Assembly (NCBI GenBank): GCA_965277795.1
Contig: OZ255840.1
Coordinates: 3,493,566-3,557,565 of the forward strand
Direction: 5' to 3'
From: Lapillicoccus sp.
GTDB taxonomy: Bacteria; Actinomycetota; Actinomycetes; Actinomycetales; Dermatophilaceae
DNA length: 64,000 bases
Positions 30,203 to 63,789 of this stretch are shown one piece after another. The notes below the pieces were generated by a model that was given only the letters and a program-made list of their open reading frames with translations, was not told the DNA's origin and made no database searches. The stretch's first letter is position 1. Every line of letters starts with the position of its first letter. Made by a program: the position numbers and the translations under genes.

Positions 30203-30213
30203 GACGCAGATAG

Positions 30214-36101: not shown

Positions 36102-39100
36102 CCATGGAGGTCTTCGACGTCACCGGCCCGCTCCCGACCGGGACGACGCTGCTCGAGGCCAGCGCGGGGACCGGCAAGACGTGGACCATCTCGTCGCTGG
36201 TGACCCGATACGTCGCCGAGGGACACTGCCGACTGGACGAGCTCCTGGTCGTCACCTTCGGTCGGGCCGCCAGCGAGGAGCTGCGCCTGCGGGTCCGCGA
36301 ACAGCTGGTCGCCGCGGAGCACGCGCTGACCGCCGCCGACCCCCCCGATCCCACCGACCCCGCCGACCCCGCCGACCCCGCCGACCCCGCCGACCCCGCC
36401 GACCCCGCCGACCCCGCCGACCCTGACAACCCTGACAACGCCGACAGTCGCGCCAGTCGCCTCACAGAGGCAGATCCGCGCATCCAACCCTTGCTGGGTC
36501 AGCTTCTCGCCGGCGGCCCTCACGAGGTCGCCGCGCGACATGCGCGAGTCCGGGAGGCCCTGGCGACCTTCGACGGCGCCACCATCGCCACCACCCACCA
36601 GTTCTGTCAGCTGGTGCTGACCGGTTTGGGTATCGCCGGTGACACCGACGCCAGTGCTCGCCTCGTCGAGGACCTGGATGACCTCGTCAACCAGGTCGTG
36701 GACGACCTCTATGTGCGCGGCTTTGCCGGGCAGACAACGCAGCCGGAGTTCAGCCGCTCCGAGGCCGGAGCGATCGCCGCAACCGCCACCGTTGACCCGC
36801 AGGCACAGCTGGAGCCGGGCACCGTGAACCGAGACACGGTCGGCGGGCGGCGAGTGTCCTTCGCGCGGGCGGTGCGCGAGGAGTTCGACCGTCGCAAACG
36901 CCGGCTCGGGGTTCTCAGCTATGACGACCTGCTGGGCCAGCTCGCCGACGCGCTTGCGGACGAGGCTGCGCCGGCGCGAAGCCGGATGCGGCAGCGATGG
37001 CGCGTCGTGCTCGTCGACGAGTTCCAGGACACCGACCCGGTGCAGTGGCAAGTGCTCGACCGGGCCTTCACCGGCCACGCGACCATGGTGCTCATCGGGG
37101 ACCCGAAACAGGCGATCTACGCGTTCCGGGGCGGCGACGTGGTCACCTACCTCGCCGCCGCGCGGTCGGCTGTCCATCGCGCCACGCTCTCGGTGAACCA
37201 CCGCAGCGACGCCCCGCTCGTCGAGGGCCTGCAGGCTCTGCTCGGTGACGCGGAGCTGGGTGACCCCGAGATCATCGCGCACCCGGTCACCGCCTCTCGG
37301 AAGGGATCTCGACTCTGCGGCGCGCCCCACCCGGAGCCGTTCCGCCTGCGCGTCGTCGACCGGGCAGCGCTCGGCGCCCCCGCCGACGAAGGTCTTCCCG
37401 TGTCTCGACTGCGGCACGTCGTCGCGCAGGACGTGGCGGACGACATCGCCCAGCTGCTGCGCTCGGGCGCCACCTTTGACGGTCGACGTCTGCAGCCACG
37501 AGACGTCGCCGTCCTGGCCGACACCCGCCCCAAGCTGTTCGAGGTGGCCGCCGCACTCGAGAGGCTCGGGATCGAGGCGGTTCTCGTCGGGGCGGGTACC
37601 GTGCTCGGCGCACCGGCGGGACGCGCTTGGCTCACCCTTCTCGATGCGATGGCGCAGCCGCACCGTTCGACCCTTGTCCGGGCGGCCTCGTTGACACCGT
37701 TCCTCGGGCGGTCTGCCGGCTCTCTCGACGCAGCGGGTGACACCGCGACCGCCGAGGACGCGGAGACCGTCCGCGGCTGGGCGGACGCGCTGCGACAACG
37801 AGGTCCAGCCGCTGTACTCGAGCTCGCGAGCGGGGACGGTCGACTGGCCGATCGCGTGCTCCGTCAGCCGGACGGGTCACGCCTGCTCACTGATCTTCGA
37901 CACACAGCAGAGCTGCTTGCTGAGGCCGCCGAAGAAGGCCATGCGTCAGCCGGTGCGCTGGCCGCCTGGCTCGCCCGGCAGCGAGCCCAAGACCTGACGG
38001 TTGTGTCGACGGACCGGGCTCGGCGGCTGGACAGCGATGCGTCCGCCGTCCAACTGCTGACCATCCACGCGAGCAAGGGCCTGCAGTTTCCGGTGGTGTA
38101 TGCGCCGTCGCTGAGCGATCTCTACGCGCGACGGGGCGATCACCCGCTTTACCACAACCAGGACGGGGTGCGCTGCGTCGACGTCAGCGGCCACGGTGGT
38201 ATGCGCGAGGCCAGCGAGCGGGCCGCCCAGGAGGACTCTGGAGAGGAGCTGCGCAAACTGTACGTCGCGCTTACCCGTGCCCAGTCGCAGCTCGTGGCCT
38301 GGTGGGCTCCCAGCTCACACAACACCAGCACCTCTGCGTTGCATCGGGTGATCTTCGGGCGTCGCCCAGGTGGAGCGCAGGTCCCGCCGTCCGCTCCCGT
38401 CCGCGACGACGCGGATGTCCGGCGGATCACCGCCGCCTGGCAGGAGGCGGGCGCCTTTGCGGTGGAACCGTGCCTTGCGGACCGACAGGCCTACCGGCCG
38501 GGTTCGACCGAAGCCGCCAGTCTCGCGATCCGCCACTTCACGCGCTCGCTGGACCGAGCCTGGACCCGGACGTCGTACACCGCCCTCGCTCACGCGGCAG
38601 CGGAGACCGGGGCTCGGGGCCCCGACGCGTTACGTTCGGTGACCGAGCCCGAAGACCCACCACGCGAGGACGAACCACCGCTGGCCGGTTCCGGCGCGCA
38701 CCCGGACGCCGATCGCCCTCGGGTGTTGTCGCCGATGGCCGACCTCCCCGTCGGGGCCACCTTCGGGTCGCTGGTCCACGCCGTTCTCGAGCACGCCGAC
38801 CCGGACCAGTCCGGCGACGCCGCCGCCTGGCGGGCGCAGCTGCTGCGGCTCGTCGACGAGCAACGGGTCTGGTGGCCGGTCGACCTCGACCGCGAGCTCC
38901 TGACGACGGCTCTGGTGACTGCCTGCGACACACCGCTCGGGCCGTTGGCCCGGGACGTCACTCTTCGTTCGGTCGGGCGCGACGACCGGCTGACCGAGCT
39001 CGCTTTCGAGCTGCCACTAGGTGGAGGGGACAAACGGTCGCCGACGGTCACCGCTGCGTTGCTGCGCGACATGGCACACCTATGGCGCGAGCACGTCCCG

Positions 39101-39580
39101 AACGACGACCCGCTGGCCGGATACGCCGACACCCTCGACCATCCTGCATACGAGCAGATCCTCAGTGGCTATCTGTCCGGTTCGCTCGACCTCGTGTTCG
39201 GTGTCGGTGACCCGGAGCATCGTCGATACCTCGTGGCCGACTACAAGACCACGTGGGTCGGCGACCACGACGGCCCGCACTACGCCGACGCATACCATCC
39301 GGGACGTCTGTCGGAGGCAATGTCCCGGACGAGCTACCCGTTGCAAGCGCTGGTGTACTCCGTTGCGCTGCATCGGTTCCTGCGCTGGCGGCAGCCCGGG
39401 TACCAGTTCGGCGACCACTTCGGCGGGGTGCTCTACCTCTATCTACGCGGGATGTGCGGCCCGGCCACCCCGGCCACCTCGGTCGGTGACGGACACCCGT
39501 ACGGCGTATTCGCCTGGCAGCCCACCGAGATGCTCGTCGAGGGGGTCTCGCAGCTGTTCGGGGGACGGGAGGCCGGATGA
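36098..39580 (+). CDS. recB: Exodeoxyribonuclease V beta subunit (UvrD-like helicase plus C-terminal PD-(D/E)xK nuclease)
   Basis: Motif I EASAGTGKTWTI. Motif II VLVDEFQDTDP. C-terminal nuclease motif LVADYKTT. Contains an in-frame (DPA)n repeat. Confidence 0.9.
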   Translation: MTMEVFDVTGPLPTGTTLLEASAGTGKTWTISSLVTRYVAEGHCRLDELLVVTFGRAASEELRLRVREQLVAAEHALTAADPPDPTDPADPADPADPADPADPADPADPDNPDNADSRASRLTEADPRIQPLLGQLLAGGPHEVAARHARVREALATFDGATIATTHQFCQLVLTGLGIAGDTDASARLVEDLDDLVNQVVDDLYVRGFAGQTTQPEFSRSEAGAIAATATVDPQAQLEPGTVNRDTVGGRRVSFARAVREEFDRRKRRLGVLSYDDLLGQLADALADEAAPARSRMRQRWRVVLVDEFQDTDPVQWQVLDRAFTGHATMVLIGDPKQAIYAFRGGDVVTYLAAARSAVHRATLSVNHRSDAPLVEGLQALLGDAELGDPEIIAHPVTASRKGSRLCGAPHPEPFRLRVVDRAALGAPADEGLPVSRLRHVVAQDVADDIAQLLRSGATFDGRRLQPRDVAVLADTRPKLFEVAAALERLGIEAVLVGAGTVLGAPAGRAWLTLLDAMAQPHRSTLVRAASLTPFLGRSAGSLDAAGDTATAEDAETVRGWADALRQRGPAAVLELASGDGRLADRVLRQPDGSRLLTDLRHTAELLAEAAEEGHASAGALAAWLARQRAQDLTVVSTDRARRLDSDASAVQLLTIHASKGLQFPVVYAPSLSDLYARRGDHPLYHNQDGVRCVDVSGHGGMREASERAAQEDSGEELRKLYVALTRAQSQLVAWWAPSSHNTSTSALHRVIFGRRPGGAQVPPSAPVRDDADVRRITAAWQEAGAFAVEPCLADRQAYRPGSTEAASLAIRHFTRSLDRAWTRTSYTALAHAAAETGARGPDALRSVTEPEDPPREDEPPLAGSGAHPDADRPRVLSPMADLPVGATFGSLVHAVLEHADPDQSGDAAAWRAQLLRLVDEQRVWWPVDLDRELLTTALVTACDTPLGPLARDVTLRSVGRDDRLTELAFELPLGGGDKRSPTVTAALLRDMAHLWREHVPNDDPLAGYADTLDHPAYEQILSGYLSGSLDLVFGVGDPEHRRYLVADYKTTWVGDHDGPHYADAYHPGRLSEAMSRTSYPLQALVYSVALHRFLRWRQPGYQFGDHFGGVLYLYLRGMCGPATPATSVGDGHPYGVFAWQPTEMLVEGVSQLFGGREAG
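36343..36438 (+). repeat. In-frame tandem repeat (GACCCCGCC)x7 with degenerate flanks, encoding (DPA)n in the RecB linker
   Basis: Seven perfect 9-bp copies at 36355-36417, flanked by CCCGATCCCACC and GACCCTGACAACCCTGACAAC variants. Confidence 0.85.
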
Positions 39581-41307
39581 CCACCGACGAGCTCCGGCCG
39601 GCGCACCACCGCGACACGGACGTCCACGCGACCGGCATGTTGCGCACCTTCAACCGAGCAGGAGCGCTGACCGCCGCTGACACGCATGTCGCCACCCGAG
39701 TGGGGGCTGCCGTGGGCGAGAGCGACGAGACGGTGCTTCTGGCTGTGGCGCTCGCCGTTCGCGCCGCCCGCCAGGGCTCGGTATGCGTCGACCTCGCCTC
39801 ACTCCCGGCGACCGACGGTCTCGACTGGCCCGACACCGAGGCCTGGGTGGCCGCGGTGACCAAGAGCAGGGTTGCGGGGCAGGGTGTCATCCACTACGAG
39901 CTCGGGCGGCTCTATCTGGACCGCTACTGGCGCGAGGAATGTCAAGTCGTCGACGACCTTGCCGCGCGTGCCGCCCTGCCGGTCACGGTCGACCCGTCAA
40001 GGCTTCGAACGGCGCTCGACGAGTCCTTCCCGGGTGACGCATATCGGGAACAGCGGGACGCCGCCGAGGTCTGCTGCACGCACCGGACGAGCATCGTCAC
40101 CGGTGGCCCGGGCACGGGCAAGACGACCACCATCGCGCGGCTGGTCGCCACGCTGGTCGCCGTCGAGGGCGGCCGGCTGCGCATTGCCCTGGCCGCACCG
40201 ACCGGGAAGGCCGCCGCGCGCATCTCCCAGGCCGTGCACGCCGAGGCGGCAAAGTCTGACTTCGGTGTCAGGGCAGGAGCTTTCGTCGGCTCGCTCACCG
40301 CGTCCACGCTGCACCGGCTCCTTGGTTGGCGCCCTGACAGCCGATCCAGGTTTCGTCACGACCGCACGAACCCGCTTCCGTACGACGTCGTGGTCGTGGA
40401 CGAGACGTCGATGGTCTCGCTGACCCTGCTGGCTCGACTGCTGGAGGCCATGCCACCGCAGGCCCGCCTCGTGCTGGTCGGTGACGCCGACCAGCTGACC
40501 TCGGTCGAGGCCGGCGCGGTCCTGCGCGACCTCGTCGATGGTCTGGGGCCGAGAAGCGACTCGGTGGCGCACCTCACGACGAGCCATCGTTTCCGCGGCG
40601 CCATCGCGGAGCTCGCTGACGCCGTCCGCGCCGGCGACGCGCAGGCGGCTCTCGAGGTCCTCGACGGCGGCGACCCGAGTGCCTCGCTCGTCGACGATAT
40701 CCAGCCCTTTGTCCTGCCATCCGTGCTCGCGCTGCACGAGGGCGCCGAACGAGGTGATCGAGTAGCGGCGCTGGGTGAGCTCAGCAGGCACCAGCTGCTC
40801 TGCGCCCACAACACCGGGCCGTTCGGGGCTCGATGGTGGAACCGGCAGCTGGCGACCTGGTTGGCGCAGACGCTTGGTGTCGACTACCTGCCCGGCCGTT
40901 ACCCCGGACTACCCCTTCTCGTGACCGAGAACGACTACACCCTGGGCCTGTTCAACGGTGACACCGGCGTCGTCGTGCGTTCACCGTCGAACGACGGCCT
41001 GTATGCGCTGCTGGCCGACGGGCTGTCCGAAGCAGGGCGAGAGCTGCACCTCAACCGGCTCGCGAACGTCTCTGCCGCGCACGCCATGACCGTGCACCGG
41101 GCACAGGGCAGCCAGTACGAGGCGGTCTCGGTCGTGCTGCCCGAGCCAGGCTCACCCCTGCTGACCCGGGAGCTGTTCTACACCGCCGTCACCCGCGCGC
41201 GGCACACGGTCCGGATCCTCGGGTCGCGCGAGGCCGTGACCGTCGCAATCCGGCAGCGGGCAGCCAGAGCCACCGGCCTCGCCGATCGGTTGCGCTCACA
41301 AGAATGA
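39577..41307 (+). CDS. recD: Exodeoxyribonuclease V alpha subunit
   Basis: ATGA overlap with recB. Walker A VTGGPGTGKTTT. SF1 helicase motifs. Confidence 0.9.
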   Translation: MTTDELRPAHHRDTDVHATGMLRTFNRAGALTAADTHVATRVGAAVGESDETVLLAVALAVRAARQGSVCVDLASLPATDGLDWPDTEAWVAAVTKSRVAGQGVIHYELGRLYLDRYWREECQVVDDLAARAALPVTVDPSRLRTALDESFPGDAYREQRDAAEVCCTHRTSIVTGGPGTGKTTTIARLVATLVAVEGGRLRIALAAPTGKAAARISQAVHAEAAKSDFGVRAGAFVGSLTASTLHRLLGWRPDSRSRFRHDRTNPLPYDVVVVDETSMVSLTLLARLLEAMPPQARLVLVGDADQLTSVEAGAVLRDLVDGLGPRSDSVAHLTTSHRFRGAIAELADAVRAGDAQAALEVLDGGDPSASLVDDIQPFVLPSVLALHEGAERGDRVAALGELSRHQLLCAHNTGPFGARWWNRQLATWLAQTLGVDYLPGRYPGLPLLVTENDYTLGLFNGDTGVVVRSPSNDGLYALLADGLSEAGRELHLNRLANVSAAHAMTVHRAQGSQYEAVSVVLPEPGSPLLTRELFYTAVTRARHTVRILGSREAVTVAIRQRAARATGLADRLRSQE

Positions 41308-41385
41308 GCCGTCGGCTTCGGCAGACGCCGGCACGGGCGTAACCACAGGAGCGCCGACCTCGAACGTGCTGGAGGAACCGCGATC

Positions 41386-42882
41386 GTGTCCGACCACCCA
41401 ACTATGCTCGCCGAAACCACGGTAGGGGGTCCCATGCTGACGTTCGACGAGCTCACCGAGCTGCGCGACCGCCACGCCTCCTGGCGCCTGCTTCGCGCCA
41501 CCAACGCCCCGCTCGTGATCAGCTTCCTGTCCCGCGTCTTCGTCGAGGAGAACGTCCGGCTGATCACCCAAGCCGAGCTCGCATCCCGCCTCGACGACGA
41601 GCTGCACGCCCTGCGCACCTCCCGTGGCGAGGATGCGTTCCCCAGGTCCGCGGCCGCATACATCGCCGAGTGGGCGTCCAACGACGCCGGCTGGCTGCGG
41701 CTCTACTACACCCAGACGAGCGACGAGCCGCACGTCGACGCCACCCCGGCGCTCGAGAAGGCCGCGGCGTGGCTCGAGAGCCTGCGCGAGCGCTCCTTCG
41801 TCGGCACGGAGTCCCGGCTCAACACCGTGGTGGACCTGCTCCGACAGATCGTCCAGGGCGCCGACGCCGACCCCGACCGTCGGCTCGCGCAGCTGCGCGC
41901 CGAGCGTGCTCGACTGGACCAGAGGATCGCCCGCGCCGAGGACGGCCAGATCGACGTGCTCGACCCGACGGCACAGCGCGACCGCTACCAGCAGTTCAGC
42001 GCGACGGCCCGTGACCTGTTGTCCGACTTCCGAGAGGTCGAGGTCAAGTTCCGCGCGCTCGACAGAGAGATGCGCGAGACCATCGCGGGCTGGTCCGGCG
42101 CCAAGGGCGAGCTGCTCGACCATGTCCTCGGTGACCGCAACGCCATCTCCGACTCCGACCAGGGCCGCAGTTTTCACGCGTTCTACGACTTCCTGCTGTC
42201 TGCTGACCGTCAGGACGAGCTCGCCCACCTGCTCGACTCCGTCCATCGGCTCGGCTCCATCGAGGCCGACCCGCGAGTGCGGCGGATCGACCACGACTGG
42301 CTGGCCGCGGCAGACCGGACGCAGGCGACCGTACGCCTCTTGTCCGACCAGCTGCGACGGTTCCTCGACGACACCGCATGGCTCGAGAACCAGCGCGTCA
42401 TGGACCTCCTGCGCAGCATCGAGGCATCCTCGATCGCCCTGCGGGACAGGCGCGTTGCGCTCAACCTGGATCTCGACGCGATCCGGCCCGAGATATCGCT
42501 TCCCTTCGAGCGACCCCTCTATGCCCTACCTGCCCCGTCCGAGATCGACAGCAGCATCGGCGAGTCCGACGAGAGTGTCGAGACGGGTGCGCTGTTCGGC
42601 CAGGACCACATCGACCACCAGCGCATCGTCGCCCACATCAACGCCGCCCTCGCTCACCGCAGCCAGATCGCGCTGTCCGAGCTGCTGGCCAGCCAGCCCC
42701 TCGACCACGGCCTGGCCGAGCTCGTCGCCTACCTCGGCGTCTCCGACGACGGGGTCGACCTGGTCTTCGACGACGCGGCCCGGGCGCGGGTGGCCTGGCG
42801 CGATGACCAGGGTGCCGGTCGTCAAGCCGACGCTCCCACCGTCATCTACGTCCGACGCGAACCCGCCCAGAGCACGACATGA
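41386..42882 (+). CDS. jetA: Wadjet JetA / MksF-like kleisin subunit (DUF3375)
   Basis: About 498 aa. Coiled-coil-rich. N-terminal TFDELTELRDRHASWRLLRATNAPLVISFL typical of DUF3375. First gene of a four-gene operon. GTG start, alternative ATGs at 41404 and 41434. Confidence 0.75.
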   Translation: MSDHPTMLAETTVGGPMLTFDELTELRDRHASWRLLRATNAPLVISFLSRVFVEENVRLITQAELASRLDDELHALRTSRGEDAFPRSAAAYIAEWASNDAGWLRLYYTQTSDEPHVDATPALEKAAAWLESLRERSFVGTESRLNTVVDLLRQIVQGADADPDRRLAQLRAERARLDQRIARAEDGQIDVLDPTAQRDRYQQFSATARDLLSDFREVEVKFRALDREMRETIAGWSGAKGELLDHVLGDRNAISDSDQGRSFHAFYDFLLSADRQDELAHLLDSVHRLGSIEADPRVRRIDHDWLAAADRTQATVRLLSDQLRRFLDDTAWLENQRVMDLLRSIEASSIALRDRRVALNLDLDAIRPEISLPFERPLYALPAPSEIDSSIGESDESVETGALFGQDHIDHQRIVAHINAALAHRSQIALSELLASQPLDHGLAELVAYLGVSDDGVDLVFDDAARARVAWRDDQGAGRQADAPTVIYVRREPAQSTT

Positions 42883-42892
42883 GCAGCACCCG

Positions 42893-43537
42893 ATGACGAG
42901 CGCCATCGGCGCCATCGGCGCCATCGGCACCATCGGTGCTGTCGACCCTGCCGCCGCGGAGGCCATGGAGGTTTCCCGGGTCGTCATCTCGCTGCTCAAA
43001 GGCGTCGTCTACCAGAGTGAGAGCGCCCAGGTCTGGGCTCTGATGCGCCGGTATCAGGCCCGGGTCACCGACCATATGGCCGTCATGGGCCTCGACCTGG
43101 TCATCGACGAGGCCGAAGGTTTTGCCCATCTTCGTCAGGCCACCTTCGACGAAGCGAGCATCCCCCGTCTGGTCCCCCGGCACCGCCTCTCGTTCCGGGT
43201 GAGCCTGCTCCTGGCGCTGTTGCGCAAGAGACTCGCGGAGTTCGACGCCACCAGCAGCGATACCCGGCTGATCATCACCCGCGACCAGATCGCCCAGCTC
43301 CTGAGGGTGCACCTCCCGGACAGCGCCAACGAGGTCCGGCTCCTCGGCGATGTCGACCTGCTGATCGGCAAGGTCGACGAGCTGGGCTTCCTGCGGAAGG
43401 TCAAGGGCCAGGAAGCCACCTTCGAGGTGCGGCGCATCGTCAAGGCGTACATCGACGTGCAGTGGCTGGCCGACTTCGACGCGCGTCTGCAGGACTATCT
43501 CGACAGTCTGGATGAGGGCGGTGAACCCGATGGATGA
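42893..43537 (+). CDS. jetB: Wadjet JetB / MksE-like subunit (DUF4194)
   Basis: 215 aa, size and position typical of JetB. N-terminus carries an AIGAIGAIGTIGA repeat. Confidence 0.7.
   Translation: MTSAIGAIGAIGTIGAVDPAAAEAMEVSRVVISLLKGVVYQSESAQVWALMRRYQARVTDHMAVMGLDLVIDEAEGFAHLRQATFDEASIPRLVPRHRLSFRVSLLLALLRKRLAEFDATSSDTRLIITRDQIAQLLRVHLPDSANEVRLLGDVDLLIGKVDELGFLRKVKGQEATFEVRRIVKAYIDVQWLADFDARLQDYLDSLDEGGEPDG
42902..42937 (+). repeat. In-frame 9-bp tandem repeat (GCCATCGGC)x3 plus a variant, encoding AIGAIGAIGTIG at the JetB N-terminus
   Basis: gccatcggcgccatcggcgccatcggcaccatcggt read directly. Confidence 0.85.
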
Positions 43538-46500
43538 GCTGCCGCTGGACGATGTCATCGGCATTCCCGGGTTCCGGCTGGACCACGTCGAGCTGCTCGG
43601 CTGGGGGACTTTCGACCGGTCTGTCTGGCGCTTCGACCTCGACGGACACACGTCCCTGCTCACCGGTGACATCGGGTCTGGCAAGTCGACCCTGGTCGAC
43701 GCGGTCACGACGCTGTTCCTGCCCGCGCAGCTCATCTCCTACAACAAGGCCGCCGGAGCCGAGACACGCGAACGCAGCCTGCGGTCCTACGTCCTCGGCT
43801 ACTACAAGTCCGAGCGCAGCGAGACCACCGGCGTCTCCCGGCCGGTCGGCCTTCGCGACCACCGGTCGCACTCGGCCGTCCTCGCCGTCTTCCGCAACGA
43901 GCGCCTGGGCACCAACGTGACGTTGGCCCAAGTGTTCTGGATGCCGGACGACCACAGTGGGCAGCCCAAGCGCTTCTACCTCGTCACCGAGAGCGACATC
44001 TCCATCTCGCCCGACCTCAGTGACTTCGGCAGCGACATCAAGGTGCTCCGGAAGCGTCTGCGCGACAGAGGGATCACACTGCATGACGACTTCCCCGACT
44101 ACGCCAAGGCGTTTCGCCGAGCGCTCGGTATCCCGTCCGACCAGGCCATGAAGCTGTTCCACCAGACCGTGTCGATGAAATCGGTGGGCAACCTCAACGA
44201 CTTCGTCCGGGCGCACATGCTGGAGCCCTTCGACGCGGCGAGCGACGTGCGGGCGCTGATCGACCACTTCGAGGACCTGACCGCAGCCCACGACTCGGTG
44301 ACCAAGGCTCGCGCCCAGCTCGCCACGCTCGAGCCCATCGTTGCGGCGTGCGACGATGTCGACCGGTTCGAGGCTGAGCTCGACCACGTCGGCGAACAGC
44401 AACGAGCCCTGCGGTACGCCGGTGCTCGCCTCAGCCACGACCTGCTCGAGATCGAGGCCGAGACGCTCGCCGCCCGCGAGCTCGACACCCGGACGGCTAT
44501 CGAGTCCACCCGATCCGAGATCCAGAGTCTGGCCGATCAGGAACAGGGACTGCGCGACGCCAAGGCCGGCCATGCGGGTGGACGGGTCGGAGCCCTCGAG
44601 AAGGAGAGGGACGGCTACGCCGCAGACGCCGAGCAGCGCTCCAAACGTCATCGTGCCCTCAACGACGACCTGACCACGGCCGGCCTCGACGCCTTGGCCG
44701 ACCCGGCTCGGTTCGACGCGGTTCGCGAGGAAGCCGCGCAGTCCCAAGCACGTCTCGACACACAGACCCGCGTGGCGCGAACCCAGCTCGTCGACCTCGA
44801 GGTGGCTCGACGCGACCTCGCCGCCGAAGCAGGCCTGGTCAGCGAGGAGATCCGCAGCCTCCAGCAACGCCACTCCAGTATCCCGCTCGAACAGCTGACC
44901 CTACGGCAGCGGCTCTGCGCCGACCTGGGCCTGGTCGAGACCGAGCTGCCCTTCGTCGGCGAGCTCGTCCAGGTTCGCGACGGTGACGAACGCTGGCGCG
45001 GTGCAGCCGAGCGGGTCTTGCACGGCTTCGCTCTCTCGCTCATCGTCGACGCCGGCCTCTACCGCGACGTCTCTCGCTGGGTCGACGGACGGCACCTCGG
45101 CGCCCGTGTCGTCTACCACCGCGTCGACGCCACCGCCCGTCACCTGTCGAGCGCCCCGACGCCGGGCACCCTCGCTGCCAAGCTCGAGCTGAAATCCGGC
45201 CCGTATGCCGCCTGGCTGGCCAGCGAGCTCCAGTCGAGGGCGGCCCACGAGTGCGTCGAGGACCCGGCCGATTTTGCCCGCGCGCACCGGGCGGTGACCG
45301 TCAACGGGCAGGTCAAGTCGGGCAGCTTCCACGAGAAGGACGACCGCAAGCGGATCGACGACCGTTCACGGTACGTCCTCGGGTGGGACAACACCACGAA
45401 GAAGAACGCGCTGATCGAGCGGGCAACAGCGTTGCAGGACAAGGTGGCCGGCACCGACAAGGCGCGGCGCGATGTTGAAGATCTCGTGGCGACGTATGCG
45501 TCACGTAGTTATGCACTGACCCGGGTCCTGACCGTCGACGACGTGCGCGACGTCAACTGGTGGGAAAGCGTCGCACGCGCCGAGGAGGCACGTCGCGAGC
45601 TGGCACTCTTGCACGACGCCTCGACGGAGCTGGCGGCGATCGAGCGACAGCTCGGTGTCGTCGAGAGCGAGCGGGCCGCGAAGGAGTCGACGCGCAGTGA
45701 TCTCGACCAGCAGCTCGGTGCCGTCCGCAGCCGGCTACACCAGGTGATCGAGGCCCGGGACCAGGCCCTCGAGACGGTGCGAGGCATCCCCGACACTCTC
45801 GAGCTGGCGGTCACCGCGGCGGCCGAGATCTTGAGACGCACCGGCGTCAGCCGTGCCGACCGGGTCACAGACGAGGTAGAGCTGCTGCGCGCCGACCTTG
45901 CCGTGCGATCCCAGTCCCTCGAGAGCCGACGAGGCACGGCGCGGTCCCGAGCCGAGCGTGGGATGAGCGCGTTCCGGCAGGCCTACCCGGCCGAGACGAG
46001 CGAGATGGACGCGAGCATCGACGTGGCTGGCGACTACCGGATGTTCCGTGAGCGGGTCGCCCGTGACGACCTGCCCCGTTTCGAGCAGAACTTCAAGAGG
46101 CTCCTCAACCAGAACGCCATCCGCGAGATTGCCGGGTTCCAGGCCCGCCTCAACCACCAGGCCGACGAGATCACCCAGCGGGTTGCGACGATCAACGCGT
46201 CCCTTCGGGACATCGACTACAACACCGACCGGTTCATCCGGCTCGAAGCGCTGCCGACGCCGTTCCTCGAGATCAAGGAGTTCCGTGCCGACCTGCGAGC
46301 GTGCACGCAGGGCGCCCTACTCGGGGATGCGGACGACGAGCTTTACTCGGAACGCAAGTTCGAACAGGTACGGGGCATCATCGCGCGGTTCCGCGGGCGC
46401 GAGGGGTTCGCCGAGCACGACCGCGCCTGGACCGTGCGCGTCACCGATGTGCGCAACTGGTTCGTCTTCAACGCCTCCGAACGCTGGCGCGAGACCAACG

Positions 46501-46934
46501 AGGAGCATGAGGTCTATGCCGACTCTGACGGCAAGTCGGGCGGGCAGAAGGAGAAGCTCGCCTACACGATCCTGGCCGCCTCGCTGGCCTACCAGTTCGG
46601 GCTCGACGCGACCGACCCCGCTGCCAGGACGTTCCGGTTCGCCGTGATCGACGAGGCGTTCGGCCGGGGTTCCGACGACTCGACCCGGTTCGCACTGCGT
46701 CTGTTCGCGCGGCTCGGACTCCAGCTGCTGGTCGTCACCCCGATGCAGAAGGTGCACACCATCGAACCGTTCGTGCAGCGAGTCGGCTTCGTCGACAACC
46801 CGAGTGGAGCATCGTCGCGACTGCACACGCTGACGATCTCCGAGTACCAGTTCCAGCGCGACCGCGCGACGGCCGAACGGCGGGGCAGACCCGACGAGCA
46901 GACGGGCCTGCTTGGCTTGGCCGCGAGCTCGTAG
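43530..46934 (+). CDS. jetC: Wadjet JetC / MksB-like SMC-family ATPase
   Basis: N-terminal FRLDHVELLGWGTFD...LLTGDIGSGKSTLVDAVTTLF (Walker A). Long coiled coils. C-terminal ABC signature/Walker B (SGGQKEKLAYTILAASL...RFAVIDEAF). Start ATG overlaps jetB stop (ATGGATGA). Confidence 0.85.
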   Translation: MDELPLDDVIGIPGFRLDHVELLGWGTFDRSVWRFDLDGHTSLLTGDIGSGKSTLVDAVTTLFLPAQLISYNKAAGAETRERSLRSYVLGYYKSERSETTGVSRPVGLRDHRSHSAVLAVFRNERLGTNVTLAQVFWMPDDHSGQPKRFYLVTESDISISPDLSDFGSDIKVLRKRLRDRGITLHDDFPDYAKAFRRALGIPSDQAMKLFHQTVSMKSVGNLNDFVRAHMLEPFDAASDVRALIDHFEDLTAAHDSVTKARAQLATLEPIVAACDDVDRFEAELDHVGEQQRALRYAGARLSHDLLEIEAETLAARELDTRTAIESTRSEIQSLADQEQGLRDAKAGHAGGRVGALEKERDGYAADAEQRSKRHRALNDDLTTAGLDALADPARFDAVREEAAQSQARLDTQTRVARTQLVDLEVARRDLAAEAGLVSEEIRSLQQRHSSIPLEQLTLRQRLCADLGLVETELPFVGELVQVRDGDERWRGAAERVLHGFALSLIVDAGLYRDVSRWVDGRHLGARVVYHRVDATARHLSSAPTPGTLAAKLELKSGPYAAWLASELQSRAAHECVEDPADFARAHRAVTVNGQVKSGSFHEKDDRKRIDDRSRYVLGWDNTTKKNALIERATALQDKVAGTDKARRDVEDLVATYASRSYALTRVLTVDDVRDVNWWESVARAEEARRELALLHDASTELAAIERQLGVVESERAAKESTRSDLDQQLGAVRSRLHQVIEARDQALETVRGIPDTLELAVTAAAEILRRTGVSRADRVTDEVELLRADLAVRSQSLESRRGTARSRAERGMSAFRQAYPAETSEMDASIDVAGDYRMFRERVARDDLPRFEQNFKRLLNQNAIREIAGFQARLNHQADEITQRVATINASLRDIDYNTDRFIRLEALPTPFLEIKEFRADLRACTQGALLGDADDELYSERKFEQVRGIIARFRGREGFAEHDRAWTVRVTDVRNWFVFNASERWRETNEEHEVYADSDGKSGGQKEKLAYTILAASLAYQFGLDATDPAARTFRFAVIDEAFGRGSDDSTRFALRLFARLGLQLLVVTPMQKVHTIEPFVQRVGFVDNPSGASSRLHTLTISEYQFQRDRATAERRGRPDEQTGLLGLAASS

Positions 46935-46938
46935 TCCC

Positions 46939-48165
46939 GTGAGCCCCGTTGTTCCCTCTGCGTGGTCCACGCTCCACGACATCCGGACCGCGCTGCAGCG
47001 CCGGTGGGACAAGGGCGAGCTGCTCACCTGGGTCGCATCGGGTGAACCGTGGACGGCAGTGCGGGTCCCCCTGCGCGGACCGAGCGCGCGCGAGCTGTCA
47101 GAGCAGTTCGGGCCGGTTCAGGACTGGTCCAGCACCCTGGCGCAGGACGCGGCGGGCCGGGCGCACAGGCGACGAGGCGGTGAACGGCTGCCGGCGTTCC
47201 GCATCGAACGCCGCACCGTCGGCGGTCGTCTGGTCGGGTCGAACGCCGTCCCCGTGGCCGCGTGGTTCGACTCACCCGACCAGGTCTGGTCGCTGCTGGG
47301 TTTGCAGTCCGACGTCGACGCGTACACCGCGTTGCTCGACTTCACCCGCGGGAGTGACGCACTCCTAGGCCAGTGGGCCGCGAGGAAACCCCTCACCGTG
47401 CTCGCCCACCGGTCAGACTGGGTGCAGGTGGTCGAGACGGTCCTGTGGCTCCACCCGCGGCGCGGCACCGCGGCCTACCTCCGCGAGATCGACGTCCCCG
47501 GTGTCGACACAAAGTTCATCGAGGCGCGCCGGGGTCTGCTGGGTGATCTTCTCGACGCCCTGTCGCCGGACGACGTCAACGGGTCACGCTTGTCAGCAAG
47601 GCATTTCGCTCGCCGCTACGGTTTCGCCGAGAAGCCGCGGATGATCCGGATGCGTTCGCTCGACGGGCTGCCCCTGTTCGGCGCGGTCTCCGACGCGGTG
47701 GTCCGCGTGGAGGAGCTCGCTCGCACCGAGATCGAGTGCGAGAAGCTGCTGGTCGTCGAGAACGAGGTGACGTTCCTGGCTCTCCCGGTGATCCCGAACG
47801 TTCTCGCGGTCTTCGGAGCCGGCTTCGACGTGCTGCGCCTCGGCCGGGTCCCGTGGGTCGCGGACCGCACGGTCATCTATTGGGGTGACATCGACACTCA
47901 CGGTTTCGTGATCCTCGACCGGCTGCGCGGCGTGCTTCCGCGCGTCGACAGTGCGCTGATGGACTTGGAGACGTTGCTGTCCCACCGAACACAATGGGTT
48001 CGGGAGCCCACCCCGTCCCGCGAGATCCTCACGCGACTCACGCCGGTCGAGTCCGACGTGTATGCCGCGCTGGCAACGGATGCGCTCGGACCGGCAGTCC
48101 GGCTGGAGCAGGAGCGGGTCAGCTTCACCACCGCCGAGTCTGTTCTTCGCGCCCGGCTGGGGTGA
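46939..48165 (+). CDS. jetD: Wadjet JetD / MksG-like Toprim (topoisomerase VI-A-like) nuclease subunit
   Basis: N-terminal DUF3322-like region (LQRRWDKGELL). C-terminal Toprim LVVENEVTFLAL...VIYWGDIDTHGFVILDRLR. Start GTG 46939, alternative TTG 46912. Confidence 0.8.
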   Translation: MSPVVPSAWSTLHDIRTALQRRWDKGELLTWVASGEPWTAVRVPLRGPSARELSEQFGPVQDWSSTLAQDAAGRAHRRRGGERLPAFRIERRTVGGRLVGSNAVPVAAWFDSPDQVWSLLGLQSDVDAYTALLDFTRGSDALLGQWAARKPLTVLAHRSDWVQVVETVLWLHPRRGTAAYLREIDVPGVDTKFIEARRGLLGDLLDALSPDDVNGSRLSARHFARRYGFAEKPRMIRMRSLDGLPLFGAVSDAVVRVEELARTEIECEKLLVVENEVTFLALPVIPNVLAVFGAGFDVLRLGRVPWVADRTVIYWGDIDTHGFVILDRLRGVLPRVDSALMDLETLLSHRTQWVREPTPSREILTRLTPVESDVYAALATDALGPAVRLEQERVSFTTAESVLRARLG

Positions 48166-48580
48166 CCTCAACCGCAGACATCGCAGTAGCCAGGCACGGG
48201 CATGTTCAAGAAACACCTCGGACAGATCTCTGCCTCGATGCGCGAGTTCCGTTGGCCACCTCGAGAGACAGGGTCATAGGCAGGCAGCTCGAGGGGCGCA
48301 GGCACCGGTCTCGACCATAGCGGACCTCAACAACGGCAAGACCGGCCGCGGCCTCGTCCGATCTGCTTCACCAACCTCGGTCTGCGGCGCCCTCGATTGC
48401 CAGCCTGGGACCCCCGCGAATGCGCCGCGGCAGACGAGGCGAATGCCCAGGGTCCGAGATCGGCAGCCGGAACTTCTCGACGGACGAGGTCGAGTACGAG
48501 CGGGCAGTGCTCTGCGTCAGCGCGACCGCATGACCATGCCAGCGCAGCGCAGATTGGACGACCCCTCCCGTCGGAACCCG

Positions 48581-48609
48581 TTGACACGGGCTCATGTCAT
48601 GTCTATGGT
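48581..48609 (+). promoter_or_regulatory. Near-consensus housekeeping promoter TTGACA-N17-TATGGT
   Basis: TTGACAcgggctcatgtcatgtcTATGGT lies within an unusually AT-rich 80-nt stretch about 125 nt upstream of the polyol dehydrogenase start. Confidence 0.4.
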
Positions 48610-48734
48610 TCTCTTCACACCCAGAGTGCGGTACCTATCATAAAGTTAACTTAGCGCGGCGTGGCGCGGGTGTCGCGAGGCTGCCGATGAGACGACCGGA
48701 CCCACACGCATGGTCGTCGGATGGGATGCCGAAT

Positions 48735-49769
48735 ATGCGCGCAGTCGTCTTTGCGGCCGAGGGCAGGCTGGCCCTGGAGGATCGCCCCGAACCGTCGCCC
48801 GGCCCGAAGGAGGTGGTTGTCGAAACTGCTGCTGTCGGGATCTGCGGCACAGACGCCCACGTCTTCGACGGTGAGTTCGAGGGCACGGTGTTTCCGCTCG
48901 TCCCGGGACACGAGGCGACCGGCACCGTGGTGGCGATCGGTTCCGAGGTCAGCGGCAGTGGGAACCCGGTCTGCGTCGGTGACCACGTCGCCGTGAACCC
49001 AAGCACCACGTGCGGGGAGTGCGAATTCTGTCTCAACGGTCACCAGAACCTCTGCCGGTCGTGGAACGGACTCGGGGTGGTTGCCTCCGACGGCGCGGCG
49101 CAGGAACGGTTCGTGGCTCCGTTGGCCAACGTCTACCGGCTGCGGCCCGAAACTGACCTGCATCAGGCCGCGCTGATTGAGCCGCTCGCCTGCTCCATCC
49201 GGGGCTGGGACGTCCTACCTCGCCGGATCGGTGATCACGTCCTCGTCTACGGCTCGGGGACGATGGGCCTGATCATGGCGCAGCTCGCTCCTCGGGCCGG
49301 GGCGGCTTCGGTGACCATCATCGACCTGAACGACGACCGACTCACGGCCGCGGAGGCGGTCGGCATCGAACACCGTCACACCAGCGCCGACGCGGCTCCG
49401 CGCACGCAGTGGGACGTCGTCATCGACTGCACCGGTAACGCCAAGGCGATCGAGGACGGCCTAGGCCGGGTCAAGGCGGGCGGCTTCTTCCAACACTTCG
49501 GGGTCGCCCCCGCGGAGGCCATAGCCGGCTACTCACCCTTCCGGATCTACCGCGACGAGATTTCCATCGTCGGGACGATGGCTGTTCTCAACTCGTTCGG
49601 TCGAGCCGTGGAGATGTTCGAGGCCGGGGTGATCAGGCCCGGACCGATGATCAGCCACTCCTTCACCCTCGACGACTACGCGGCAGCCCTGGAGATGTTC
49701 CGCCGGGGGACGGGCCGAAAGCTGCAGATCCGTCCGAACGACTCCGAGTCACGGGTCTTCACGTCATGA
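48735..49769 (+). CDS. Zinc-dependent medium-chain dehydrogenase (polyol/tetritol or threonine dehydrogenase-like)
   Basis: GICGTDAHVF...GHEATG. Structural Zn ligands CGECEFC. Rossmann GSGTMG. Start at internal ATG (MRAVVFAAEG). Confidence 0.8.
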   Translation: MRAVVFAAEGRLALEDRPEPSPGPKEVVVETAAVGICGTDAHVFDGEFEGTVFPLVPGHEATGTVVAIGSEVSGSGNPVCVGDHVAVNPSTTCGECEFCLNGHQNLCRSWNGLGVVASDGAAQERFVAPLANVYRLRPETDLHQAALIEPLACSIRGWDVLPRRIGDHVLVYGSGTMGLIMAQLAPRAGAASVTIIDLNDDRLTAAEAVGIEHRHTSADAAPRTQWDVVIDCTGNAKAIEDGLGRVKAGGFFQHFGVAPAEAIAGYSPFRIYRDEISIVGTMAVLNSFGRAVEMFEAGVIRPGPMISHSFTLDDYAAALEMFRRGTGRKLQIRPNDSESRVFTS

Positions 49770-50443
49770 GCGTCGCCCTGGAGACCGGCAGCTCTGAGTC
49801 ACGTCACCCCCAGGTGGGGAGGCTTTCGGACCGGACACGGACCTTGGCTCGCATCGGCGTCCCCCTCCTCATCCTCGTGGCCATGGCCTTCGGTACGAAG
49901 GTCGTCAGTTTGAACGACGCTGCCACCGCCGGGCCCAAGGTCTTCGACCCGGTGACCTACGGGAAGACGGAGTTCCCCAAGGTCCAGGAGGCCGTCACCA
50001 AGAAGGCCGTGCCCGCGGAGGTCCTCGCCAAGGCTCTCGCGGCCGACCCCGCTGCGGCAGCGAAGCAGTACGGCGTGCAGGGGGGCACGGGGCCGCTGTT
50101 CCCGGTGAGCCTAACTGGGACCATGGGCGCGGGGCAGTCGGGGATCTACGCCGTCACCGTAGCGGGTGTCCCATCCACCCTCATCATCCGCGTGCAGACC
50201 GGTCCCGCCATCAACGGAACGGACCTGAGGGACGCCACAGGGACGATCACCTTCGGCCAGTTCACCAACCAGATCGACTACCAGAACGCCGCGTCGGCCC
50301 TGAACACGCAGATGAAGCAGCAGGTCCTGACCCCACTCGGCACGGCCACGCTCACCGGCAAGAAGGTCACCCTGGTTGGCGCATTCCAGCTCATCAACCC
50401 CAACGGCTGGCTCATCACGCCGGTGAAGTTGACCGTCTCATGA
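49766..50443 (+). CDS. DUF2291-like periplasmic/lipo-protein associated with sugar ABC transporter
   Basis: ATGA-coupled to the dehydrogenase. TM/signal segment IGVPLLILVAMAF. Sits upstream of a two-domain sugar ABC ATPase, as DUF2291 usually does. Confidence 0.5.
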   Translation: MSVALETGSSESRHPQVGRLSDRTRTLARIGVPLLILVAMAFGTKVVSLNDAATAGPKVFDPVTYGKTEFPKVQEAVTKKAVPAEVLAKALAADPAAAAKQYGVQGGTGPLFPVSLTGTMGAGQSGIYAVTVAGVPSTLIIRVQTGPAINGTDLRDATGTITFGQFTNQIDYQNAASALNTQMKQQVLTPLGTATLTGKKVTLVGAFQLINPNGWLITPVKLTVS

Positions 50444-51993
50444 CCAGCGTCGAGGCAATGTCCATCGACGAGCCAGGCCCGGGCTCGGTCGTTCTGAGCG
50501 CTCGCAACGTCGTCAAGACGTACGGCGGCACGCAGGCCCTCAAGGGCGTCGACTTCGACATCACCCGCGGCACGGTGACGACCCTTTTCGGGGAGAACGG
50601 CGCCGGCAAGTCCACGCTGATGAAGATCCTTTCCGGCGTGGAGAGCCCCACATCGGGGGAGATCGTCCTCGACGGTGAGCCCGTGGTGTTCGGCTCGACC
50701 GTGGAGGCCCGTGACCGGGGGATCTCGATCATCCACCAGGAGCTGAGCCTCGCCCCCAACCTGTCCGTGCGCGACAACATCTTCATGGGTCGTGAGCTGC
50801 GCACCTCAAGAGGGAGCGTCGACTTCGCCGAGGAGGCCCGCCAGACCCGGGCCATTCTCACCGAGCTGGAAGAGGAGATCGATCCCCTGACCCCGGTCTC
50901 CGCGCTTCGTCTCGGCCAGCAGCAGATCGTCGAGATCGCCCGGGCCCTGTCCGTCAACGCCCGCATCCTCATCATGGACGAGCCCACCTCCGCACTCAGC
51001 GCCTCCGAGGTGGAGATTCTCTTCAAGGTCATCCACGACCTGACCTCCCGGGGCGTCTCCATCGTCTACATCTCCCACCACCTCGAGGAGGCACTGCAGA
51101 TCACCGACCACGCGGTCGTGCTGCGCGACGGGTCGATCACCGCAACGGCGGCTGCCCGCGACATCGACCTGGAGTGGGTGGTGCGGCAGATGGTCGGGGC
51201 GAACTTCGACCTCGGAGAGCCCCCTCCCCGGTCTGACACCGCCAAGGTCGCCCTCTCGATCGTCGACGTCAGTGTCGCCGACGTACGCAACCCGGACCGC
51301 TTCGTCGTCGACGGCATCAGCCTCGACGTGCGCGCCGGCGAGGTCGTGTGCCTCTACGGCCTCATGGGAGCCGGCCGTACCGAGCTCCTCGAGGCCGTCG
51401 CCGGACGGGTGCCGGTCGCGTCGGGGACAGTCCTGCTCGAGGGACAGGACATCACGCGACTGAGCATCGCGCAGCGCATCGCGCGGGGTCTGGGGCTGGT
51501 TCCCGAGGACCGTCAACGCGACGGCCTCGTCCAGACCATGTCGGTCGGTCGAAACATGTCACTGGCCAGCATCACGTCCTTCGTGCGCGGGCTCTTCGTC
51601 GCCGGATCCCGGGAGCGGACGCTCGTCGAGCAGTCCATCGACGCGGTGCACGTCAAGACGGCCGGTGGCGCCGCCGCGATCGGGTCCCTGTCCGGCGGCA
51701 ACCAGCAGAAGGTGGTCATCGGCAAGATCCTCGCGACCAACCCCGACGTGATCCTCCTCGACGAGCCCAGCCGCGGTATCGACGTCGGCGCCAAAGGCGA
51801 GGTGTTCCGCCTCCTCGCGGAGCGGGCCCAGACCGGCCTGGCCGTCGTCTACTCCACCTCCGAGGTGGGCGAGTGCCTGAGCATCGCCCACCGCATCGTC
51901 GTGATGCGCCGCGGGCGCATCTCGGCCGAATTCCCAGCCGACACCACCAAAGAAGCGATCATGGCCGCCTCGGGCGAAGCCGTGGTCGTGTGA
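50440..51993 (+). CDS. Sugar ABC transporter ATP-binding protein (tandem ATPase domains, RbsA/MglA-like)
   Basis: Two Walker A motifs (GENGAGKST and GLMGAGRTE), two LSGGQQ signatures. Confidence 0.9.
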   Translation: MTSVEAMSIDEPGPGSVVLSARNVVKTYGGTQALKGVDFDITRGTVTTLFGENGAGKSTLMKILSGVESPTSGEIVLDGEPVVFGSTVEARDRGISIIHQELSLAPNLSVRDNIFMGRELRTSRGSVDFAEEARQTRAILTELEEEIDPLTPVSALRLGQQQIVEIARALSVNARILIMDEPTSALSASEVEILFKVIHDLTSRGVSIVYISHHLEEALQITDHAVVLRDGSITATAAARDIDLEWVVRQMVGANFDLGEPPPRSDTAKVALSIVDVSVADVRNPDRFVVDGISLDVRAGEVVCLYGLMGAGRTELLEAVAGRVPVASGTVLLEGQDITRLSIAQRIARGLGLVPEDRQRDGLVQTMSVGRNMSLASITSFVRGLFVAGSRERTLVEQSIDAVHVKTAGGAAAIGSLSGGNQQKVVIGKILATNPDVILLDEPSRGIDVGAKGEVFRLLAERAQTGLAVVYSTSEVGECLSIAHRIVVMRRGRISAEFPADTTKEAIMAASGEAVVV

Positions 51994-52009
51994 CCCGGAA
52001 CAGGACCAC

Positions 52010-53182
52010 GTGCAGATGACTACCACCACTCGGAACCCCGCTGCGCCGACCACCGAGCCACCGACGCGTCGGCCAAAGCTCAACATCGGCCGTCTCCTGC
52101 TAGAGGGTCGGGCGTTCTTCGCCCTCCTCGCGGTCATCATCATCTTCTCCCTCCTCTCCCCCAACTACCTCACCGTCAGCAACATCCTGACGATGTCCTC
52201 GCACGTCGCGGTCTATGCCCTGCTGGCGATCGGGATGCTCCTGGTCATCCTCAACGGCGGCATCGACCTGTCCGTCGGCTCGACGCTAGGGCTGTCCGGC
52301 GTCGTCGCCGGTTTCCTCATGCAGGGGGTCAAGATCCCTCCCTTCGGGGTGGCGCTCTTCCCGTCTGTGTGGGTGGTGGTCGTCCTGTGCTGCCTCGTGG
52401 GCGCCTTGATCGGGCTGGTCAACGGCACACTGGTGGCACGGTTCAGGGTTGCGTCGTTCGTCGCCACCTTGGGCATGCTCTACGTGGTCCGGGGCGTGGC
52501 GCTGCTGATGACCAACGGTCTGACCTACAACGATCTCAGCGGCCAGCCGGAACTCGGCAATACCGGCTTCAACTGGTTGGGCTTCAACAAGCTGATCGGT
52601 GTCCCCATCGGCGTCCTGGTGATGATCGTCGTAGCGGTCCTCGCCAGCCTCCTGCTGACCCGCACCGTCTTCGGCCGCTGGCTGTACGCCTCCGGCGGCA
52701 ACGAACGTGCGGCCGAGCTGTCGGGGGTGCCCGTCAAGAAGGTCCAGGTCTGGGTCTACGTCATCTCGGGCGTCTGCGCGGCCCTCGCCGGTCTCATCCT
52801 CTCCTCGGAGCTCACCTCGGCTGGCCCCACCGCTGGCACATCCTACGAACTGACCGCCATCGCCGCCGTCGTCATCGGAGGGGCCGCCCTCACCGGAGGA
52901 CGCGGGAACGTGCGCGGCACCCTCCTCGGAGCGTTCGTCATCGGCTTCCTGTCCGACGGCCTCGTCATCATCGGTGTCTCGGCCTACTGGCAGACGGTCT
53001 TCACCGGAGCCGTCATCGTGCTCGCCGTCCTCCTTAACTCGGTGCAGTACGGCCGACGCCGCCGCACCCGCAAGAACGCCACGCCCTCCCCCGGTGAGGG
53101 CGCCACTCCCGACACCTCCCCCGGTACCCACCCGAACGACGACTCGAAGACCTCCACCCCATCCCGCACCTCACCCCGGTGA
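52010..53182 (+). CDS. Sugar ABC transporter permease (RbsC/branched-chain permease fold)
   Basis: Multiple TM helices. Conserved GGIDLSVG and ELTAIAAVVIGG motifs. Pro/Thr-rich C-terminal tail. Confidence 0.85.
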   Translation: MQMTTTTRNPAAPTTEPPTRRPKLNIGRLLLEGRAFFALLAVIIIFSLLSPNYLTVSNILTMSSHVAVYALLAIGMLLVILNGGIDLSVGSTLGLSGVVAGFLMQGVKIPPFGVALFPSVWVVVVLCCLVGALIGLVNGTLVARFRVASFVATLGMLYVVRGVALLMTNGLTYNDLSGQPELGNTGFNWLGFNKLIGVPIGVLVMIVVAVLASLLLTRTVFGRWLYASGGNERAAELSGVPVKKVQVWVYVISGVCAALAGLILSSELTSAGPTAGTSYELTAIAAVVIGGAALTGGRGNVRGTLLGAFVIGFLSDGLVIIGVSAYWQTVFTGAVIVLAVLLNSVQYGRRRRTRKNATPSPGEGATPDTSPGTHPNDDSKTSTPSRTSPR

Positions 53183-53211
53183 AGCACCCCCACCCCTTGG
53201 AAGGACCACCC

Positions 53212-54213: not shown

Positions 54214-54337
54214 CCAGCCTCGTGGTCGGGCGCTCGTTGACCTGGCCTGCCTTCTCGGCGCACGGAATCCGACCAGTTCGGTCGTCGCCCCGAGAATCCC
54301 TCCGGACCCCACCGGCCACCCTCTAAGGAGGTCCACC

Positions 54338-56194: not shown

Positions 56195-56670
56195 CGACGA
56201 AACCCAGGATTCGTGTCGTGGTCGGGTCGGACTCGGCCGGCTTCGACTACAAGGAGGCCCTGCGAAGGGACCTCGAGGCGAACGCGGACGTCGAGCTCGT
56301 CGCCGACGTCGGTGTCGGTGCCGCCGAGGACGAGCAGACGGCTTACCCGTCCGTGGCCATCGCCGCAGCGCAGATGGTGGCCGACGGGCGGGCCGACCGC
56401 GCCCTGCTCCTCTGTGGCACCGGCCTGGGGGTCGCCATCGCCGCTAACAAGGTCCCCGGCGTTCGCGCGGTGACCGCCCACGACAGCTTCTCGGTCGAGC
56501 GGTCCGTCCTCAGCAACAACGCCCAGGTGCTGACCTTCGGGCAGCGGGTCATCGGCCTCGAGCTCGCCCGCCGGTTGGCCAGGGAGTGGCTGACGTACGA
56601 GTTCGACGAGTCCTCCGGCTCGGCGTCCAAGGTCGCCGCGATCAGCGAGTATGAACACACCAGGCACTGA
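56191..56670 (+). CDS. RpiB/LacA/LacB-family sugar-phosphate isomerase (candidate D-erythrulose-4-phosphate isomerase)
   Basis: [18 protein letters not shown]...[21 protein letters not shown] RpiB signature. ATGA overlap with upstream kinase. Confidence 0.85.
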
Positions 56671-63741: not shown

Positions 63742-63789
63742 GATTCGCTCCTCGGGTTGTCAGGGCTGAGACAGGTGTGAGTCATGGCG

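Follow-up and report, generated by a model that had tools for sequence, protein, structure and literature searches.

Does the compact gene cluster that directly follows recC, recB and recD on the chromosome of a Lapillicoccus sp. encode a complete Wadjet system, and does its position beside the genes for RecBCD carry functional meaning? The stretch analyzed, referred to here as the window, comprises 64,000 nucleotides (nt) of this organism with a G+C content of ~68-70%, and all coordinates are positions within it. An earlier note on this DNA had described four co-directional, tightly packed genes, jetA-jetB-jetC-jetD, with the architecture of a type I Wadjet, and had proposed that the locus couples two machines, that JetB bears an unusual repeat and that the subtype might be divergent. 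We consider it very probable that the four genes constitute a complete, intact and chromosomal type I Wadjet (JetABCD, also known as MksBEFG or EptABCD), that the adjacency to recBCD is a genus-level accident and that the (AIG)n repeat in JetB is a slippage polymorphism. The operon is wholly typical of its type and its exact proteins are already present in public databases; it is an uncharacterized representative of a well-known system.

Evidence for a Complete Type I Wadjet

The genes concerned, together with an alternative reading of the first, are as follows.

41434..42882, + strand: jetA, kleisin-like subunit (DUF3375), 482 amino acids (aa) from the conserved ATG
41386-42882, + strand: jetA from the alternative start GTG 41386, 498 aa
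42893..43537, + strand: jetB, KITE/MukE-like subunit (DUF4194), 214 aa
43530..46934, + strand: jetC, structural maintenance of chromosomes (SMC)/MukB-like ATP-binding cassette (ABC) ATPase, 1134 aa
46939..48165, + strand: jetD, nuclease subunit with an N-terminal DUF3322 and a C-terminal Toprim domain, 408 aa, GTG start

Searches for DUF3375, DUF4194, SMC/MukB-like and DUF3322/DUF2220 families, which the earlier note had proposed as its check, were all positive. JetA matched Pfam DUF3375 (PF11855) at 4.1e-135 (profile 2-473/474), PADLOC JetA1 at 6.5e-191 (profile 1-479/480) and the solved JetA 8q72_E at 2e-21, and JetB matched Pfam DUF4194 (PF13835) at 7.4e-42 (profile 2-165/165), PADLOC JetB1 at 3.9e-81 and, from residue 33 onward, the solved JetB 9qxt_C at 8.8e-5. 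JetC was recovered by PADLOC JetC1 (E = 0, 1336.8 bits, profile 16-1120/1123) and by Pfam AAA_29 and SbcC_Walker_B, and aligned over residues 15-1113 with the solved JetC 8dk2_C (2.5e-53), an end-to-end alignment that predicts a long coiled-coil/hinge region. For JetD, the matches were Pfam DUF3322 (PF11795; 5.3e-41) and JetD_C/DUF2220 (PF09983; 2.7e-48), PADLOC JetD1 (6.9e-124) and three solved nucleases, namely Corynebacterium glutamicum MksG 8b7f (7.8e-22), Escherichia coli JetD 8q72_M (2.2e-17) and 7til (1.3e-16).

The motifs that had been picked out earlier also align. The JetC translation contains GDIGSGKST, whose Walker A element GSGKST pairs with GSGKTT of solved JetC; its signature SGGQKEKLA pairs with SGGEKEIIA and its Walker B AVIDEAF with IILDEAF, or with VLDQAF in an entry carrying the E-to-Q mutation. 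In JetD, which contains VVENEV and YWGDIDTHGF, E274 aligns at the mutated catalytic position of 8q72_M (an E248A entry), and GDIDTHG pairs with GDMDSWG of solved JetD such that the Toprim DxD is present (D-I-D vs D-M-D). Judged from these alignments, the catalytic motifs of JetC (Walker A, signature, Walker B) and of JetD (Toprim Glu, DxD) are in register, and since this holds for JetD against three solved JetD/MksG structures, the question of its Toprim domain can be regarded as settled. Thus, the Wadjet/Mks profiles, the ABC signature and the Toprim domain, the absence of which had been named beforehand as evidence against a Wadjet, were all found. Every strong PADLOC match is to a type I (JetX1) model, all four of which were matched, each near end to end of the profile, and the sole signal of another type was a faint one to JetD3 (2.4e-4 to 7e-3). 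On these profiles the locus is not assigned to type II or type III Wadjet, and the suggestion of a divergent subtype is not upheld.

Gene Boundaries and Composition

The open reading frame (ORF) list and the frames of high third-position G+C place recC-recB-recD-jetA-B-C-D as seven + strand genes between 32.7 and 48.2 kilobases (kb). The four jet genes are free of frameshifts and form a co-directional, compact cassette in the order A-B-C-D, an order also seen in 38 of the 38 metagenomic loci that hold all four genes. A gap of 10 nt separates jetA from jetB, jetB and jetC overlap by 8 nt (ATGGATGA), and 4 nt lie between the jetC stop and the jetD GTG, in agreement with the close junctions described earlier; relatives share the jetD GTG, and in them it overlaps with the stop codon of jetC (GTGA).

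The gene sizes first given (about 498, 215, 1134 and 408 aa) stand for JetC and JetD and require revision for JetB, which has 214 residues, and most likely for JetA. The GTG of the window at position 41386 is replaced by CTG in four relatives whose nucleotide identity is ~89% (hereafter the ~89% relatives), in which ATG 41434 and the GGGGG just 5' of it are kept in the alignment; JetA homologs are 480-490 aa long, and a 482-aa product is on public record. For these reasons the jetA start is most likely ATG 41434, which lies 126 nt after the end of recD, and the spacing of 78 nt reported previously holds only for GTG 41386. Public gene calls contain products of exactly 482, 214, 1134, 408 and 576 aa for JetA, JetB, JetC, JetD and RecD, all on a 6.65-Mb contig, and as these exact proteins are already on record, the gene calls are independently supported. 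A compositional sign of recent transfer was sought by comparing G+C and third-position G+C (GC3) of the jet genes with flanks and other genes, and none was found: their G+C is 0.67-0.69 against 0.70 in the flanks, and their GC3 of 0.84-0.88 is in line with that of other host genes.

Proposed Activity and Comparison With Known Systems

By analogy with studied systems, JetC dimers, closed off by the kleisin JetA and joined by a dimer of the KITE protein JetB, would load onto DNA as an SMC motor, which would extrude DNA loops using ATP. On small circular DNA (less than roughly 100 kb) the entire circle would be extruded and the motor would stall, and the stalled complex would then permit double-strand cleavage by the dimeric Toprim nuclease JetD, linearizing the plasmid and leaving a linear product that cellular exonucleases such as RecBCD may degrade. 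The targets of JetABCD, for which MksBEFG and EptABCD are given as synonyms, are circular DNA molecules of at most about 100 kb, which it restricts and cleaves (10.1101/2022.10.04.510915), with plasmid restriction occurring via DNA cleavage (10.1101/2023.11.03.565488). RecBCD degrades Jet cleavage products in vitro (10.1101/2022.10.04.510915; 10.1101/2025.03.10.642339), and in actinobacterial MksBEFG the nuclease role falls to MksG (PMC10123090).

The type I Wadjets of E. coli GF4-3 and Pseudomonas aeruginosa (8as8, 8q72, 8dk1-3, 7til) match the window system in all four subunits and in their order; each of the window proteins aligns to the solved chains, with ATPase and Toprim motifs conserved. 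The window sequences are nonetheless distant and belong to a high-GC actinobacterial clade, and JetB is shorter (214 vs about 250 aa) and has another N-terminal tail, which carries a 9-base-pair (bp) repeat. C. glutamicum MksBEFG, like the window system, is an actinobacterial, chromosomally encoded type I system, as is Mycobacterium smegmatis EptABCD; the genomic context differs from that of both, given that the window system adjoins recBCD. C. glutamicum MksG (8b7f) is the best solved match of the window JetD, at 7.8e-22 over the Toprim domain, with clear alignment limited to the C-terminal domain of JetD. An anti-plasmid role is described for the C. glutamicum system (PMC10123090).

Public records name the closest relatives of these proteins as DUF3375 or DUF4194 proteins of unknown function, for which the proper label is type I Wadjet (JetABCD/MksBEFG). 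An intact Wadjet would also predict poor establishment of small circular plasmids when Lapillicoccus or its relatives are manipulated.

The recBCD Neighborhood

The placement of the jet genes directly downstream of recBCD is confirmed by NCBIfam models for all three upstream genes.

32742-36101, + strand: recC, TIGR01450, 806.7 bits (cut-off 582.9)
about 36098/36104-39580, + strand: recB, TIGR00609, 688.3 bits (cut-off 696.05)
39577-41307, + strand: recD, TIGR01447, 447.6 bits (cut-off 310.15)
41308..41433, + strand: recD-jetA intergenic region, with a 32-nt block, TGTCCGACCACCCAACTATGCTCGCCGAAACC, followed by a GGGGG ribosome-binding stretch

The recB score falls marginally under its cut-off; the ORF scored is N-terminally over-long and contains a 33-aa (PAD)n insert, and the match reaches the end of the profile. 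These three genes are neighbors of jetABCD and not part of the Wadjet system.

Conservation of the arrangement was surveyed from both sides. Starting from RecD, the 80 best loci among 185,579 GTDB species genomes were taken with 10-kb flanks and searched by tblastn with JetA-D. Synteny of recC-recB-recD was recovered throughout, and jet genes lay within 10 kb of recBCD in none of the 79 actinobacterial loci other than L001. Because RecD in these 79 loci is no more than 54% identical to that of the window, this result speaks against a general association and does not trace how the genes were gained or lost at a single site. The single closer locus, L001, is a Lapillicoccus metagenome-assembled genome (MAG) with an 81% identical RecD; it ends 142 nt past recD, and this tail matches neither the window nor the relatives L081-L084. 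On the JetA side, 80 metagenomic loci with JetA 53-63% identical were collected; 40 of them reach 2 kb or more upstream of jetA, and none of these has recB, recC or recD there. recBCD was likewise absent from four distinct jetABCD contexts (six loci) with JetA 67-80% identical, represented by metagenome contigs at 80% and 78%, the Terrabacter tumescens genome at 68% and a further 68% locus on a 508-kb contig. Gene order thus portrays the jet cassette as autonomous of recBCD.

The order recC-recB-recD-jetA-B-C-D was found only in the nearest relatives, at 89-99% nucleotide identity: three Lapillicoccus/Actinomycetota MAGs and one Logan contig (~89-90%) and one ENA contig, ERZ26273096 (L092), which is 98.7% identical over 18.8 kb. 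The Lapillicoccus sp. MAGs GCA_039935575, GCA_030853545 and GCA_030155745 have a JetA of 94-95% identity, and the seven-gene order is common to these and to ERZ26273096. Across the order-sharing relatives, Rec proteins are 85-93% and Jet proteins 85-94% identical, and this similar divergence fits one juxtaposition that was vertically co-inherited within the genus. In the synteny comparison suggested earlier, which was to look for jetABCD variably present beside a conserved recBCD, the adjacency was confined to close Lapillicoccus relatives and missing from all 79 other loci.

The ~89% Lapillicoccus genomes differ from the window in this gap, where recD and jetA are spaced about 200 nt further apart and the added sequence carries a minus-strand small ORF (54-65 aa).

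L081 8378-8542, L083 268-465 and L084 2280-2477, minus strand: small ORF between recD and jetA in relatives; the window equivalent is the gap 41283-41386

Its 65-aa form gives a match to the Phd/YefM antitoxin family (4e-7), and no partner toxin is visible in the relatives. This Phd-like antisense ORF has been deleted in the species of the window, bringing the rec and jet clusters closer. The 32-nt block is invariant in the alignment with L081-L084, which suggests an independent jet promoter, and the intergenic region is probably jetA's own promoter and 5' untranslated region. Terminators were sought across 41000-48800, including the recD-jetA gap, and none was found; a promoter scan of the same interval returned only sites upstream of the alcohol dehydrogenase gene and none in the recD-jetA gap, using an E. 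coli-type consensus that is hardly informative in an actinobacterial host.

Alternative Readings

A housekeeping role is one alternative, in which the genes would be an MksBEF-type condensin that organizes the chromosome rather than a defense system. A match of JetB to the Pfam MksE condensin family (1.2e-16) is compatible with this, as are the chromosomal locus and its host-like composition. MksBEF, however, consists of three genes without a nuclease, whereas the fourth gene here is a full-length JetD/MksG nuclease with its Toprim residues intact; moreover, the top profiles are all defense-type JetX1 models, and in the homologous C. glutamicum MksBEFG, which targets plasmids, the nuclease step is carried out by MksG (PMC10123090; PMC7083940). 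We therefore regard a condensin as extremely improbable. The intact type I Wadjet assignment has points to weigh against it as well. We infer the activity, size limit and expression of the operon from homology, and identity to the studied systems is low (phmmer 1e-17 to 1e-53 vs the E. coli, P. aeruginosa and C. glutamicum proteins), such that details such as the polar localization of MksBEFG may differ here; further, that two species of a single genus keep the adjacency would also be compatible with selection for it.

That last point bears on the proposal that the locus couples two machines, which in its fuller form would make recBCD and jetABCD a selected, co-regulated module of seven genes in which Wadjet linearizes a plasmid and co-expressed RecBCD destroys the product at once. 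The gap of just 78-126 nt, which holds no terminator-like site, would suit such a module, as would the fact that two species lineages of Lapillicoccus, ~89% identical in nucleotide sequence, have both kept the adjacency, the loss of the antisense Phd-like ORF that brought the clusters nearer in the window's species, and the in vitro degradation of Jet products by RecBCD. Yet the adjacency is missing from the 79 other recBCD loci, the 40 jetA loci and the four jetABCD contexts at 67-80%, the sister species has an oppositely oriented ORF between the clusters, and the conserved 32-nt block and ribosome-binding site upstream of jetA suggest a separate promoter. RecBCD also attacks any linear DNA, making linkage unnecessary. 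On balance a selected module appears very unlikely. It is conceivable, though very unlikely, that loss of the antisense ORF fused the two clusters into one read-through unit in this lineage, giving stoichiometric co-expression in a lineage-specific cut-and-chew super-operon. A functional relay from Wadjet to RecBCD is plausible and does not need linkage, and the comparative genomics gave no sign that linkage was selected. The proximity is accordingly read as an accident of gene order at the level of the genus and not as a conserved functional module; as it is not recurrent, Wadjet-RecBCD adjacency should not be taken as a functional module.

Outside Lapillicoccus, the nearest relatives of RecD, RecB and RecC among L001-L080 belong to Nocardioidaceae rather than to Dermatophilaceae/Intrasporangiaceae and share only about 50% identity; the nearest JetA outside the genus is found in Humibacillus, Intrasporangium and Terrabacter (66-70%). 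Of the two clusters, it may be recBCD that is less typical of the family and that was possibly acquired.

Tandem Repeats in JetB and RecB

The two arrays that fall within the rec and jet genes are both in frame.

42900..42946, + strand: jetB 9-bp tandem repeat in the N-terminal tail, AIG-AIG-AIG-TIG-AVD, five units of which the last two are degenerate
36324-36423 (to 36439 with PDNPDN): recB 9-bp repeat, CGCCGACCC, 11 copies encoding (PAD)n and then PDNPDN

The JetB repeat described as unusual is real, being detected by Tandem Repeats Finder at 42900-42936 (period 9, 4.1 copies, 96% matches), and proves to be an unremarkable in-frame length variant. The sequence at this site in the ~89% relatives is MTSTVDTVDPAAAE, which holds two 9-bp units, ACCGTCGAC (TVD-TVD); that of the window, MTSAIGAIGAIGTIGAVDPAAAE, is longer by exactly 27 bp, and in the 98.7% relative the repeat is equal in length with two point differences. 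It precedes residues 20-33, where the JetB profiles and the solved JetB start aligning, and the N-terminal tail differs again in a 71%-identical homolog. Because the unit length is a multiple of three, a change in copy number cannot switch jetB off. The (AIG)n repeat is thus best described as an in-frame, species-specific growth of the array by replication slippage, from 2 to 5 units, in a dispensable, unconserved tail, and as harmless.

The window holds three further 9-bp arrays and one 6-bp array, and with other 9-bp arrays present, such as (PAD)n in recB, in-frame slippage repeats of this period are a habit of the genome and not a trait of JetB. The recB array sits behind the Walker A GTGKT, some 80 residues into the protein. 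The 98.7% genome (L092) has two units fewer and the ~89% relatives (L081) have none, which makes it a fast-evolving variable number tandem repeat inside a helicase domain. Elsewhere, a 9-bp in-frame repeat of 6.6 copies occupies 14520-14578, and the 6-bp repeat, of 10.8 copies at 55427-55491, lies inside the Dak gene, in a threonine/aspartate-rich Dak1-Dak2 linker.

Wider Surroundings

Upstream of recC, the region 22529-32600 comprises a tRNA gene and a lower-GC (0.64-0.67) stretch that directly follows it.

22529-22604: tRNA-Phe, directly upstream of the lower-GC island
22565-23446: tyrosine integrase
23662-24792: SoFic-type Fic defense protein (PADLOC 8.2e-81)
24861-25976: IS630-type DDE_3 transposase
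26081-27973, minus strand: Schlafen-group-3/DUF2075 helicase, with weak PDC-S41/Nhi/AbiO hits
29373-29795: MazF/PemK toxin

This stretch, which also encodes a glyoxalase and an SPFH protein, is a tRNA-borne mobile/defense island. A second copy of the tRNA-Phe 3' end was sought to delimit the island and to place recBCD-jetABCD relative to it, and none was found.

Downstream of jetD lie two further features.

48293-58507, 10.2 kb: sugar/polyol catabolism cluster
58615-63759, minus strand: ORF of 1,714 aa with gene-like codon bias (GC3 0.82)

The cluster encodes a Zn-dependent alcohol dehydrogenase, a DUF2291 protein, an ABC ATPase, permease and binding protein, Dak1/Dak2 dihydroxyacetone kinase, RpiB, TIM and a DeoR regulator. 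L092 shares the start of the cluster; the ~89% relatives L082 and L083 have only about 310 nt at the same position, and the cluster is therefore an indel between species, its absence distinguishing the ~89% genomes from the window together with their lack of the AIG expansion and of the RecB (PAD)n repeat and their possession of the Phd-like ORF. The 1,714-aa ORF had no significant match in Pfam, PADLOC, NCBIfam or PDB sequence searches. Lapillicoccus relatives have a 1,683-aa version at 86% conservation, convergent to jetD and almost directly behind it, and the window ORF carries its own 9-bp repeat at 61271-61324.

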